From: a virus | DNA length: 64,000 nt | Direction: 5' to 3' (one strand) | IMG/VR virus record: IMGVR_UViG_3300045391_006216 | Span: 1 to 64,000 of that record | Shown: positions 59,920-64,000 of the stretch, in pieces | Layout: each line of letters starts with the position of its first letter | Position numbering within the stretch: the first letter of the stretch is position 1 | Translations under genes and position numbers: made by a program | Notes under the pieces: model-generated | What the model was told of the DNA's origin: nothing | The model's input: only the letters and a program-made list of their open reading frames with translations | Database searches by the model: none

Positions 59920-60372
59920 TTAAGCGCCGATTTTCCAAATAACTAATTTTTCTAAATATTTGTAATAAGTATCAATTTCTGCGATCGCACTAATTAAACT
60001 TGTCTGTCTAGAAAGTGGGTTAGTAATTTGAGTTAAACATGGAATAACGCTAAATTCCAACACTGGGTAAGGAGCAGAAACCTTTTTCGTGGATAAAATA
60101 TAAGAGCGGAGATTGTTTCTGTCTACTAGGTTATTACATTCTGTTTCCAAAGCTTTAGCTGACTCCAACAACATTGTTTCAAAATCAATTTTTCCATGAC
60201 GCCAATAATTTAAAAACCTCATAATTGTAGGATTTTCTTCAGAAATTGCAAATAATACGTAAGGATTACTCATTTGGATAGTGTAGTAAATTTTGCCAGT
60301 ATAACTAAAATTCAATCTTTGAGTGGTTGTTTGTGTGGTATGGCGATCGCTATGAATTACTAGTACTGCCAA
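59920..60372 (-). CDS. Hypothetical protein
   Basis: ORF; start uncertain. Confidence 0.5.
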   Translation of the reverse strand: MAVLVIHSDRHTTQTTTQRLNFSYTGKIYYTIQMSNPYVLFAISEENPTIMRFLNYWRHGKIDFETMLLESAKALETECNNLVDRNNLRSYILSTKKVSAPYPVLEFSVIPCLTQITNPLSRQTSLISAIAEIDTYYKYLEKLVIWKIGA

Positions 60373-60881: not shown

Positions 60882-61532
60882 TTAAATTGTATTTACGTTG
60901 CGATCGCTAAAATTGGAGATGTCGTCAAACACCCATTTCCCGACATTTTCTTCCACAGGAGAGAGCATTGATAAGGCAGAAGCGGCTCCTAGCACCTGTT
61001 CGTCTGTTACTTCTAAGTAACGCTGCAACTGCTCTAAGCTTTTGTGCCCAGAAATTTCTTGAATCACCCGCAACGGTACGCCGGCGTTGCTCATCTGGGT
61101 CAAGGCAGTGCGGCGAAAACTGTGGGTGCTGGCCCCCAAGATGCCGACTTGCTGGCAAGCCATTCTCAATATCCTAGAAGCTGAATCGTGGCTGATATGC
61201 CCGTCGCTGCGACCGGGGAATAAATACTCACTTCCTGCCAAAGGATGATATTTAATAAGTAATCTTCGCAAGTCTTCAATCACTGGGATGGAGCGAGTTG
61301 CCAGCTTGCCCTTGGTGTTTGCTTTTCTAATGATAAAGTGCGACCTGACTTGCCCTTTGGGGGTGTATATATCAGGGGTTAACAGAGTGCAGGCTTCGCG
61401 GATTCTGGCAGCACTAAATAAACACACGCCAAACAAAGTGCGATCTCTGTCATTTTCTAGACCTGATGCAAAAATTAGCTGTATCTCTTTTTGAGTTAGC
61501 ACTTTAGCTTTGCCATGTCGATTAATTTTCAT
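60882..61532 (-). CDS. Short tyrosine recombinase (catalytic domain only, cyanobacterial type)
   Basis: ARIREA, TKGK, HSFRRT, GH..L..LQRY. Confidence 0.93.
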   Translation of the reverse strand: MKINRHGKAKVLTQKEIQLIFASGLENDRDRTLFGVCLFSAARIREACTLLTPDIYTPKGQVRSHFIIRKANTKGKLATRSIPVIEDLRRLLIKYHPLAGSEYLFPGRSDGHISHDSASRILRMACQQVGILGASTHSFRRTALTQMSNAGVPLRVIQEISGHKSLEQLQRYLEVTDEQVLGAASALSMLSPVEENVGKWVFDDISNFSDRNVNTI

Positions 61533-61718
61533 TGCTGCTGTGTAGTCCCCAATTTAAACACTACAGGAGTTTGATGCAGTCATTTCAGCAAAAATGTTGT
61601 GACTAGATAGCTTTGTTCGTCCTTCAGAAATTCATCATATAGTAGATTTTAATTATTTTATATGCAGTGTACACAGGATATATGGTAAAATTTTTACAAT
61701 AATATCCGACCAAAAACT

Positions 61719-64000
61719 ATGCCTAATCCACATCCTAAGGTTGAGAATTTAGTCAAGCAAAAAACGGTTTGGAAGAACTTACCAACTAAGCCTTTGCGAG
61801 TTCCGGAAATTTATTGCGAAGAAATTGAAAATTATGCGCGATTGCTCGATGCTGGGATGGAGTCTAAATTTTGGGATGGGGAAGATGACGAGCCACCATC
61901 AGCATCGCAGTTAGAATTTGTCCTTAATTCAGTTAGATCTTGGCAACTAGAGGATATCGTCAAGCTTCAGTCAGAGTTACCCGCAATTATTGATGAGAAG
62001 AAAGAGAAGACATCCGATCGCCGACTTGAAAGGGCAATCTGTTATTTGTCATCACAGTGTGATGGTGCTAATTCTTTAGATGGTCAAGGTTTTAATAAAG
62101 CCGACTCAGGCTTTGGGCATTGGTTAGCTGGTCAAATTCGACAGCAAAGGCCACTGCTCCAAGCACACGCTCTAGCTGCATACAACATGATTAAAAAGTA
62201 TAGTAAGCAGATGAGTAAAGCGGGTTTATCGTTACCTTTATGGGATGCGATCGCTCATCAATATCCTGTTAATTCAGCACCAGTAATTGTTACTCAAGAA
62301 GACAAAACCATTACCCCAGAACATAGGGTAGAAGTCAAAGGGGATATGATTGCTGTGTACGCTCCTTATGATTCATCTGGTAAGTTTCAGCGTGATTCTA
62401 AAACTATTGAGGGGTATAAGTTTGAAGGTAGCGATAAATCCTGGCGTTTTCCTCTCTCGAAAATTCAGGAAGTTATAGAAAAGCTGACAAATGACCAATT
62501 TCACCTGACACCAGAGGTTGAGGGAGCAGTAGCACTAGCCCAAAAAGAGCGTGAGGAGGAAGAAGCAGCTAAGAATGCAGCGGCGTTGGTAGCTGCTGAT
62601 GAAATTGTGAAACTGGTAAAACAGGCCAGTTTAGATGCGCCCTTGGCTAATGGCTGGTATCTACGCGATTATCAAAAGCAGGGTGTAGAGTGGCTCCTTG
62701 CACACCGTCGCGGTGGAATTTACACCGGGGGTATTCTCTCAGATCACATGGGATTAGGAAAATCGCTTACAGCGTTGGTCGCAGCAAGGGCAATGCAGCG
62801 TACACACGATTGTCCAATATTTGTGATTGCTCCTGTGTCTGTGATGGATAACTGGGTACGCGAGGCGGAAAGGGCAGAGGTGAAGATTGAGTGTTTCAGT
62901 TGGGCTAAACTTCCAAAACCACTTGAGACTAAGAAATATGTGTTGATAGCTGATGAGTGCTTTCTTTATAGCACAACAATATTGACTAATATCGGTTGGC
63001 TGCCTATTGGGTCTATAGTCGAATTGAAGCTTAATGTGTTCATTGCATCTTTAAACATTGAGCGTAATGTGATAGAGTGGAAGCCTATAAATAGATGGAT
63101 TTCACGTACTAGAAAAAATAACTTGGTAAAAGTTATTCATACTACAGGTGAGTTCATTTGCACTGCAAACCACAAAATTTGGACTGAAGAAAACGGATAT
63201 GTTAAAGCAGAAACGCTCAAATGTGGAGCGAGTTTGCGAATATTGCCAGAGTATTTTTCTGACACCAACCAAAGGCAAGAACACAGCGAGATTTTGCAGT
63301 CGTACTTGTGCAAGCAAGGCAAAATACAGCACATCGGAAGCAAGGGAAAAGCATTCACGGACAACCAGACAACCATTAGTACAGAAAGCTTGTCAGTGGT
63401 GTGGACAGATTTTTCAAATGAGACAGAACAAGAAACTCAATCAGAGGAGGCAGTTTTGCAGCAAGGCTTGTGCGAATACTCACAAAGCCAATCAACCACA
63501 AGAGAAAGAGCGATCGCGTCAATTAGTTCGTCATGCCATCGAATCAAACAAGGGCAGGACGCGACCCGATGCAAGCAAGCGCATGAAGGAAAGAAACCCG
63601 ATGAAAAACCCTGCTACTTTGTTGAGGGTATCTCAAGCCCTCAAGGGCAGGACATTTTTAGCCAGAGGCGGCAACTCAAAAATTACAGAACCTCAGATGA
63701 ATTTAGCTACTGCATTGCTGCTGACAGATTATATGGAATATCCGATATCTACCAGTTCAGTAAAACATTTGTTTCCTTGCCTTCCGCCCTCTTACAAGGT
63801 GGATATAGCTTATCCAGAGAAGAAAATAGCTATCGAGGTAGACGGGAGGACTCACAAGCTAAAGAAACAGAAGTTTTTGGATCAAAGGAAAACAGAGGTT
63901 TTGAATGCTCTAGGGTGGTCAGTGTTGAGGTTTTGGAACGAGGAGATATTGAACGACTTGGAATTAGTTTTACTGAAAGTCAAACAGTTTATAACTTAGA
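61719..64000 (+). CDS. SNF2-family helicase/ATPase containing an intein; runs off the window and is absent from the ORF track
   Basis: Manual translation is open from ATG 61719 to the end: LRDYQKQGVEWL, GILSDHMGLGKS, VIAP.SV..NW..E, VLIADE followed by the intein. Confidence 0.92.
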   Translation, partial: MPNPHPKVENLVKQKTVWKNLPTKPLRVPEIYCEEIENYARLLDAGMESKFWDGEDDEPPSASQLEFVLNSVRSWQLEDIVKLQSELPAIIDEKKEKTSDRRLERAICYLSSQCDGANSLDGQGFNKADSGFGHWLAGQIRQQRPLLQAHALAAYNMIKKYSKQMSKAGLSLPLWDAIAHQYPVNSAPVIVTQEDKTITPEHRVEVKGDMIAVYAPYDSSGKFQRDSKTIEGYKFEGSDKSWRFPLSKIQEVIEKLTNDQFHLTPEVEGAVALAQKEREEEEAAKNAAALVAADEIVKLVKQASLDAPLANGWYLRDYQKQGVEWLLAHRRGGIYTGGILSDHMGLGKSLTALVAARAMQRTHDCPIFVIAPVSVMDNWVREAERAEVKIECFSWAKLPKPLETKKYVLIADECFLYSTTILTNIGWLPIGSIVELKLNVFIASLNIERNVIEWKPINRWISRTRKNNLVKVIHTTGEFICTANHKIWTEENGYVKAETLKCGASLRILPEYFSDTNQRQEHSEILQSYLCKQGKIQHIGSKGKAFTDNQTTISTESLSVVWTDFSNETEQETQSEEAVLQQGLCEYSQSQSTTRERAIASISSSCHRIKQGQDATRCKQAHEGKKPDEKPCYFVEGISSPQGQDIFSQRRQLKNYRTSDEFSYCIAADRLYGISDIYQFSKTFVSLPSALLQGGYSLSREENSYRGRREDSQAKETEVFGSKENRGFECSRVVSVEVLERGDIERLGISFTESQTVYNL
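62958..64000 (+). mobile_element. Intein inserted at helicase Walker B (after DE)
   Basis: Block A CFLYSTTILTNIGWLPIG, block B FICTANHKIW, C-terminal RVVSVEVL...TVYNL (block F); terminal His-Asn lies beyond the window. Confidence 0.9.
63199..63999 (+). CDS. Zn-finger plus Vsr/DUF559-like endonuclease, nested in the +1 frame of the intein
   Basis: CEYCQ..F...FCSRTC and CQWCG..F...FCSKAC; YKVDIA.....IAIEVDG.TH......D.RK...L..LGW.VLRFWN; ATG 63199 (GTG 63148 possible). Confidence 0.9.
   Translation: MLKQKRSNVERVCEYCQSIFLTPTKGKNTARFCSRTCASKAKYSTSEAREKHSRTTRQPLVQKACQWCGQIFQMRQNKKLNQRRQFCSKACANTHKANQPQEKERSRQLVRHAIESNKGRTRPDASKRMKERNPMKNPATLLRVSQALKGRTFLARGGNSKITEPQMNLATALLLTDYMEYPISTSSVKHLFPCLPPSYKVDIAYPEKKIAIEVDGRTHKLKKQKFLDQRKTEVLNALGWSVLRFWNEEILNDLELVLLKVKQFIT

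Follow-up and report, generated by a model that had tools for sequence, protein, structure and literature searches.

We analysed a 64,000-nucleotide stretch of viral DNA (hereafter the window), which is the first 64 kb of the 100,096-bp IMG/VR virus record IMGVR_UViG_3300045391_006216; positions 60001–75000 of the record were read as L002, whose coordinate plus 60000 gives the window coordinate. Toward the end of the window lies a SNF2-family DNA helicase gene, which we take to be a cyanophage gene, interrupted at its motif II by an intein. The central part of the intein is also open in the +1 frame of the same strand, where a 266-codon open reading frame (ORF) encodes a putative homing nuclease, and this double coding is non-random and held by selection. 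The features are listed below with their coordinates, strand and the evidence for each; pLDDT denotes a predicted local distance difference test score, and AF2 stands for AlphaFold2.

61719–64000 in the window, on to contig position 65135, plus strand: SNF2-family helicase ORF, host of the intein (ORF list, Pfam, PHROG)
61719–62957, plus strand: N-extein, with terminal residues ...VLIADE (motif II, DExH box; intein-less orthologues read ICDEAHYAQN here)
62958–64000 in the window, ending at 64049, plus strand: class-1 intein of 364 amino acids (...VLVSN, then the +1 Cys of CHYAQN)
62958–63257, plus strand: N-terminal Hint half, intein residues 1–100 (block A Cys1 at 62958–62960, block B TANH at 63162–63173; pLDDT ∼90)
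63258–63902, plus strand: helicase-frame linker, intein residues 101–315, stop-free and with no domain (Pfam, PHROG, pLDDT, stop count)
63903–64000 in the window, to 64049, plus strand: C-terminal Hint half, intein residues 316–364 (RVVSVEVL strand, block F TVYNLEVADNHNYFA, block G VLVSN; pLDDT 70–93)
63199–63999, plus strand: putative homing-endonuclease gene in the +1 frame, 266 amino acids (ATG 63199, TAG 63997–63999; DUF559, profile, AF2/Foldseek)
63235–63309, plus strand: zinc ribbon 1, CEYC...CSRTC, nuclease residues 13–37 (modelled β-hairpin E8-12/E19-23)
63391–63471, plus strand: zinc ribbon 2, CQWC...CSKAC, nuclease residues 65–91 (C65, C68, C87 and C91 invariant in alignment A2; zf-FCS)
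63784–63996, plus strand: Vsr-like/EDxHD catalytic domain, nuclease residues 196–266 (D202, E213, D215, H219, D228, GW..R; pLDDT 87–96)
63912–63933, plus strand: doubly functional codons, nuclease GWSVLRF and intein RVVSVEV (both confident β-strands in the models)

The helicase ORF runs stop-free from ATG 61719 to contig position 65135 and encodes 1138 amino acids with the intein, or 774 when spliced. It matches the Pfam families SNF2-rel_dom (expectation value, E, of 9e-25) and Helicase_C (E 4.5e-17) as well as the DNA helicase family PHROG 62 (E 4e-76). The intein comprises helicase residues 414–777, starts with CFLYST and terminates with TVYNLEVADNHNYFASGVLVSN, after which a Cys follows, and its C-terminal end at 64049 falls 49 nucleotides (nt) past the window end. 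It is inserted within motif II at DE/CH (here and below, a slash marks the insertion point), and its excision gives ...VLIADE-CHYAQN..., restoring the DExH box in a form that aligns with the DEAHYAQN of 51 intein-less orthologues. Four features place it among class-1 inteins: the block A and B residues, a block G Asn followed by Cys, the Hint fold, and an insertion in a motif whose host sequence is restored on excision. In an alignment of 10 homologues (A3), the block A and B residues C1, T69 and H72 (T69-A-N-H72) are invariant, as are V320, V344, Y345, E348, Y355 and N364 of the C-terminal half, and block G reads ...NHNYFASGVLVSN/C with Asn last, at contig position 64049. The AF2 model of the helicase frame is confident in both Hint halves (pLDDT ∼90 for residues 1–100 and 70–93 for residues 316–364), and in Foldseek searches its ordered parts match the structures 7cfv, 8ubs, 2in0 and 4kl5; the matches to the DnaX, NrdJ-1, RecA and DnaE inteins all have a probability of 1.00, with a root-mean-square deviation of 1.5–2.6 Å. 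Between the two halves, pLDDT falls to 27–38 across residues 128–313 (186 residues), which predicts a disordered linker.

The +1 frame is stop-free over 63130–63996, and the 266-residue ORF within it encodes two zinc ribbons followed by a putative nuclease of the DUF559/Vsr-like (EDxHD, I-Bth0305I) type. Its Pfam matches are to DUF559, above the cut-off (E 1.1e-14), and to zf-FCS (E 1.8e-5); the second zinc ribbon is common to the whole nuclease family. No variation is seen among 10 homologues (A2) at D202, E213, D215, H219 and D228, and in fact all catalytic and zinc-binding residues are invariant in this set, at identities of 31–83%. In a profile alignment, the spacing of the catalytic residues parallels that of Asp196, Asn208, His213 and Asp222 of I-Bth0305I (PMC3239194), and a profile built from the 10 homologues matches PDB entries 3hrl (E 7.5e-11) and 3r3p, which is I-Bth0305I (E 3e-3). 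An AF2 model made with the 10-homologue alignment has a mean pLDDT of 79.6, with 87–96 in the C-terminal domain, and its best Foldseek matches in the PDB are 3r3p (the I-Bth0305I catalytic domain), 3hrl (DUF559), E. coli Vsr (1vsr, 1cw0) and TnsA.

These results bear on an earlier account of the window made from its letters alone (the sequence-only reading), which had described a helicase frame without a stop from 61719 to the window end, a section with no recognisable domain between blocks B and F, and an intact two-zinc-finger Vsr/DUF559-like nuclease in the +1 frame. All three descriptions hold. The helicase frame stays open to 65135, so that the stop before the intein C-terminus that was sought as a refutation is absent; intein residues ∼101–315 are predicted disordered and, read in frame, yielded no Pfam family above threshold and no PHROG match; and the nuclease carries the DUF559 match and two CxxC...CxxxC ribbons. 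The sequence-only reading was also right that the nuclease end overlaps the intein at RVVSVEVL and VYNL. Its assignment of RVVSVEVL to block F has to be changed, as this is the strand before block F, which is TVYNLEVADNHNYFA.

Codon choice and substitutions across the overlap

To read the two frames against each other, the nuclease protein was held fixed while its synonymous codons were permuted in 20,000 trials, and the stops that resulted in the helicase frame were counted. Across the nuclease, the helicase frame has no stop, as against a mean of 17 and a minimum of 6 in the permutations, none of which (0/20,000) was as low as the observed value; the third frame over the same DNA has 26 stops. 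A helicase-frame stop requires a nuclease codon ending in T before a codon that starts with AA, AG or GA, and it is at these junctions that codon choice is restricted. In the window nuclease, codons ending in T make up 35% of those before harmless neighbours and 0% (0/87) of those before neighbours starting with AA, AG or GA. The same holds at all 10 loci examined closely, with 0% before such neighbours versus 11–38% elsewhere.

The pattern of substitutions was read from an orthologue (L003) in which the same helicase carries an intein of the same length, 364 amino acids. The two inteins align without insertions or deletions and differ at 194 positions. The third codon position of the helicase frame takes 20 of 40 differences outside the overlap; inside it, the peak moves to the first position of that frame (96 of 150), which is the third position of the nuclease. 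Over the same DNA, the nuclease frame is 83% identical between the two and the helicase-frame linker 55%, compared with 80–90% for the Hint halves. The phase switch and the difference in identity together indicate that the nuclease frame is under purifying selection at the amino-acid level.

In contrast, the only constraint on the helicase-frame linker is that it remains open and keeps its phase. Both proteins are truly constrained at once only at the two ends of the overlap. At the downstream end, nuclease GWSVLRF (63913–63933) and intein RVVSVEV (63912–63932) are written in almost the same nucleotides, and within this shared strand nuclease residues G239, W240 and R244 and intein residue V320 are invariant, with intein R319 present in at least 90% of sequences. 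Further on, the nuclease TAG overlaps the Leu-Glu codons of intein TVYNLE. The sequence-only reading had proposed that both frames are under selection, which is borne out for the nuclease at the amino-acid level, holds for the linker only in the sense of its staying open and in phase, and applies to two proteins at once only at the overlap ends.

Relatives of the same layout and intein-less orthologues

Scans with the nuclease found relatives at 30–83% identity in nine independent viral or genome contigs, and a scan of metagenomes matched at least 548 stretches, among which the layout was counted in the best 80. In all nine viral or genome contigs, the nuclease lies at +1 within a long ORF that carries ResIII/DEAD or SNF2, Helicase_C and a split Intein_splicing match, and the host frame of every one is free of stops across the nuclease where 3–16 would be expected. 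Among the 80 metagenome loci, the host frame is stop-free across the nuclease in 78, always with the nuclease at +1. Of these ∼90 loci taken together, nearly all have an intact nuclease ORF, and homologues with the nuclease in the helicase frame, which the sequence-only reading had named as a possible refutation, number 0 of the ∼90 examined. A near relative of the locus stands on a scaffold of a Desmonostoc geniculatum metagenome-assembled genome.

The two exceptions among the 80 metagenome loci are L097 and L028. L097 (2–661), from a contig that is short and GC-rich, is a free-standing relative of the nuclease that no host frame overlies. L028 differs from the otherwise identical L027 by a single G-to-T change at position 962, which creates a TAA in the helicase-frame linker. 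The change may be a read error or mark a naturally occurring allele, null or split; L028 is unusable as evidence. Another free-standing nuclease relative, with several zinc ribbons, lies between phage head genes (L018, 3162–4046).

Every host with a readable junction is a superfamily 2 (SF2) helicase with the intein at motif II. The 70 distinct complete inteins are 274–481 amino acids long; the insertion point is DE/ in 48 of them, DExH/ in 8 and DExHx/ in 11. At 4 of 10 loci, the nuclease ORF reaches within 2–6 codons of the intein end and thus passes through blocks F and G. The identity of the N-terminal Hint half is correlated with that of the nuclease (Mantel r 0.40, with 0 of 999 permutations as high), and so the two parts diverged together.

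Two further observations concern the placement of inteins within these hosts. In an SNF2 helicase (L011, 3239–4348), the intein-plus-nuclease unit sits three residues later, at DESHR/CK, as it does in 11 metagenome relatives, which suggests that the homing site shifts inside motif II. In two other loci (L006, 1298–5086, and L015, 1874–6385), a second, canonical intein with an in-frame LAGLIDADG endonuclease (Hom_end_hint, LAGLIDADG_3) lies upstream of the motif-II intein, so that both intein architectures occur within one gene.

Among orthologues of the window helicase, the intein is patchily distributed. The nearest orthologous helicases, at 85–94% identity in the C-extein, are 764–888 amino acids long and intein-less, and such intein-less alleles, which are candidate substrates of the nuclease, are found on plasmid pNOS7524.01 of Nostoc sp. 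PCC 7524 and plasmid pANSO36C of Nostoc cf. commune SO-36. Among the 120 relatives listed, this intein is confined to the window, L003 and P0115, in each case with 364 amino acids; P0115, the third orthologous carrier, is known only from its in-frame 364-residue intein. A scan of viral sequences with the C-extein alone matched only the L003 contig. On the extein tree, the three carriers require three state changes, and the window allele is nested among intein-less ones with 99% support. The residues flanking the insertion differ as well, with IADE/CH...NL in the carriers versus ICDE/AH...NI in the empty alleles, and by their sequence these shared flank changes look like a short co-conversion tract.

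The orthologue set also holds some variants. One intein-less orthologue among P0001–P0120 reads DECHYAQN instead of the usual DEAHYAQN of empty alleles, which may reflect either a precise loss of the intein or a pre-adapted site. LAGLIDADG_3 intein domains also occur in three more distant orthologues of 1086–1210 amino acids (P0060, P0066 and P0099), and in two of these the DEAH of motif II is intact, so the same helicase family hosts other inteins at other sites.

Two genes beside the window helicase were named by eye from motifs only: a tyrosine-recombinase-like ORF just upstream (60882–61532, minus strand) and a ParA-like ATPase just downstream (contig 65358–66077, plus strand, MLKIAVFNFKGGTAKST...). 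Together with the location of the closest orthologues on Nostoc plasmids, these neighbours give a hint of a phage-plasmid lifestyle or of plasmid exchange.

Proposed explanation and its alternatives

The layout is very probably that of a mobile intein with a homing endonuclease encoded by a gene of its own, which is overprinted in the +1 frame on the central linker. This overprinting on a contiguous intein had been proposed by the sequence-only reading, and it is now backed by the avoidance of stops, the phase switch, the family layout, the predicted folds and the conserved internal ATG described below. Under this explanation, the helicase mRNA would be translated straight through the intein, and the Hint halves (residues 1–100 and 316–364), joined by a disordered spacer of ∼215 residues, would fold together and splice to leave a DECH-box SNF2 helicase. 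The same mRNA would also be read from ATG 63199 in the +1 frame to give the 266-residue protein, with its two zinc ribbons, a basic helical region predicted to bind DNA and the Vsr-like/EDxHD catalytic domain. By analogy with I-Bth0305I, this protein would act as a dimer and cut intein-less helicase alleles (ICDEAHYAQN) near the insertion point, and repair from an intein-bearing copy would spread intein and nuclease together. Any helicase-frame stop would inactivate what looks like an essential gene of replication or repair, and the nuclease would therefore use only those synonymous codons that create no such stop.

Several observations weigh against this explanation. The first concern the intein: the penultimate intein residue is Ser instead of the usual His, as it is in about half of the family, and the Pfam Intein_splicing match of the window copy (E 1.2e-6, 28.9 bits) stays below the 35.8-bit cut-off, which the relatives L004 and L011 exceed. 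The sequence-only reading had proposed extending the sequence to find a His-Asn end and the resumed helicase; the Asn (64049) and the helicase are there, with Ser-Asn in place of His-Asn. Others concern expression, in that the purine run GAAGAAAACGGAT before ATG 63199 is a weak Shine-Dalgarno sequence, and no sigma-70-like site was found on the plus strand over 61400–64000 in a crude consensus scan, by which its absence is not shown. The last concern mobility. The three related inteins have diverged about as far as their exteins, which leaves no sign of a very recent transfer; repeated loss could also give the patchy distribution. Recent horizontal transfer among the three orthologous carriers is thus unsupported, and judged from these sequences the pattern is as compatible with old homing and subsequent loss as it is with recent transfer.

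The likely nuclease start is ATG 63199 and not GTG 63148, the start given in the mechanical ORF list. Of the 62 loci with a complete 5′ end, 52 have an ATG no more than 20 codons upstream of the first CxxC, versus ∼27% by chance (our own arithmetic), and in 19 of those 52, the window included, it lies 12 codons before the first CxxC, inside the Gly-Tyr-Val codons of the intein (GGN TAT GTN). We infer that ribosomes initiate internally on the helicase mRNA, with a level that is probably low. The weak Shine-Dalgarno sequence and the failure of the consensus scan to find an internal promoter, together with the 23 open codons of the nuclease frame before the ATG, would instead suit programmed +1 ribosomal frameshifting, which would produce a fusion of the N-extein, N-terminal Hint half and nuclease. 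Such frameshifting would need no ATG, let alone one that recurs before the first zinc ribbon and often at the same codon; several relatives have a clear Shine-Dalgarno sequence (GGAAAGG in L006, GGGAGG in L017), and no shared slippery motif turned up, although no formal search was made. We therefore regard frameshifting as unlikely.

The comparable divergence of intein and extein among the three orthologous carriers would also be expected if the nuclease ORF were an inactive relic, with vertical inheritance of an intein in which only the open helicase frame matters. A relic should not concentrate the substitutions of the overlap at nuclease third positions, nor keep the nuclease frame at 83% identity beside 55% in the other frame, and its catalytic and zinc-binding residues should not be invariant in 10 homologues with the ORF intact in nearly all of the ∼90 loci. 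These findings make it very improbable that the nuclease is a relic.

It is harder still to credit that the linker is itself a functional domain, such as a regulatory or binding module, beyond its role as a spacer. The linker alone gives a SAWADEE match that is below threshold (E 6.5e-4, 20.2 bits versus a 28-bit cut-off), and a short helix is predicted at intein residues 105–119. Against this stand the low pLDDT over residues 128–313 and the lack of any PHROG match, a linker identity of 33–55% between orthologues whose Hint parts are 64–90% identical, and the fact that changes fall mostly at the first codon position of the linker. Finally, there is next to no chance that the nuclease is really in frame and only appears at +1 through two compensating frameshift errors in the assembly: although the record is a low-depth metagenome contig and the Logan contigs have depths of only 2–4, ∼800 stop-free nt where 17 stops are expected are beyond the reach of sequencing errors, the +1 relation recurs in the nine independent contigs and in 78 of the 80 metagenome loci, and Logan contigs from three soil-metagenome runs, one of them perhaps the source sample of the window, show no insertions or deletions over 62876–63265, 63291–63591 and 63392–64000 and are identical to the stretch over the parts covered, which include both borders of the overlap.

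Known systems and meaning

A 2026 preprint (bioRxiv 10.64898/2026.09.14.751524) reportedly describes an out-of-frame homing endonuclease in a cyanobacterial dnaX intein. That system would resemble the overprinted intein in its cyanobacterial lineage, in an endonuclease outside the intein frame and in a patchy distribution. Term counts over the full text show LAGLIDADG and never VSR, DUF559, SNF2, HNH or GIY-YIG, so that both the nuclease family and the host gene appear to be different.

Also alike are the inteins of actinobacteriophages (Gosselin, Arsenault, Gogarten; bioRxiv 10.1101/2025.01.02.630785), which are contiguous and include antisense LAGLIDADG, antisense VSR-like and frame-3 endonuclease VII-like enzymes. 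Like the intein studied here, they combine a contiguous intein and an unstructured in-frame centre with an endonuclease written over the same DNA in another reading, and the set also has a VSR-like/EDxHD enzyme that matches PDB 3R3P. They differ in that the VSR-like enzymes there are antisense and the sole sense-strand case is the endonuclease VII-like one in frame 3, whereas here the sense strand encodes a VSR-like enzyme at +1. The host genes differ too: polymerase, minor capsid, terminase and thymidylate synthase there, SF2 helicases with hundreds of relatives here. The same preprint attributes the antisense LAGLIDADG enzyme of the Synechocystis dnaX intein to Gorbalenya 1998. With out-of-frame and antisense intein endonucleases described in preprints of 2025–2026, the general kind is therefore known.

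The nuclease family and its point of insertion recall what Dassa et al. 2009 (PMC2677866) described as fractured genes, in which a free-standing Vsr-like endonuclease gene lies between the halves of a split intein; Vsr-like enzymes were then stated as not known inside inteins. The endonuclease insertion point is the same, the genes concerned there are mostly phage replication and repair genes, and there too the nuclease gene runs at its 3′ end into the first bases of the C-terminal intein part, by 6–69 bp. In fractured genes, however, the host is broken into two ORFs and trans-splicing is needed. Here the host is one continuous ORF of 1138 codons (continuous also in 78 of 80 relatives), which the nuclease gene does not split in two, and the whole nuclease gene is overlapped. 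Such a contiguous host and intein frame, open across the nuclease ORF of another frame, is what marks a non-canonical intein.

For the enzyme itself, the comparison is with I-Bth0305I (Taylor et al. 2011, PMC3239194; PDB 3R3P), the prototype of the EDxHD homing endonucleases, with which that family was named. It is the best structural match of the catalytic domain and shares the acidic and His residues as well as the order of an N-terminal DNA-binding region followed by a C-terminal Vsr-like domain. The similarity in sequence is weak (profile E 3e-3), and I-Bth0305I belongs to a group I intron of phage recA and has NUMOD motifs, in contrast to the zinc ribbons of an enzyme inside an intein in another frame. 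The ShiLan insertion in a phage methylase, with its hidden out-of-frame HNH endonuclease (Arsenault et al. 2025, PMC11855218), is alike in that the host frame runs stop-free across an insert encoding a homing nuclease in another frame. There, no splicing domain is present and the insert is kept as a protein loop, whereas here a complete Hint domain is predicted to remove it. In the literature searched, we did not find a sense-strand +1 Vsr-like version, a restriction to helicase motif II, or a family of this size and regularity.

The locus is a clean natural case of a long (∼800 nt) gene overlap on the same strand, in which one frame is informative and the other is kept open purely by synonymous choice, with short stretches at each end of the overlap serving both. 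Gene callers would be expected, from their treatment of overlaps, to omit in most cases an ORF that is nested wholly within a longer one. If such nested ORFs go uncalled, hundreds of these nucleases would be missing from protein databases. On the practical side, the family is a source of numerous inteins in which a linker exceeding 200 residues is tolerated, each paired with a candidate site-specific nuclease aimed at helicase motif II.

The family also shows that contiguous inteins regularly have Vsr-like/EDxHD homing enzymes as partners and that these enzymes are not limited to split inteins and introns, and it supports the view that inteins gain endonucleases through invasion by free-standing homing genes. 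More tentatively, the fractured genes described by Dassa et al. may have their contiguous counterpart, and possibly their evolutionary bridge, in the motif-II family. It is conceivable that a free-standing Vsr-like homing gene invaded a mini-intein at +1 and survived as stops in the host frame could be avoided by synonymous choice alone, and that the two then co-evolved as a unit that hops between DE/, DExH/ and DExHx/ in unrelated SF2 helicases. The family offers a testable route between contiguous and split inteins.

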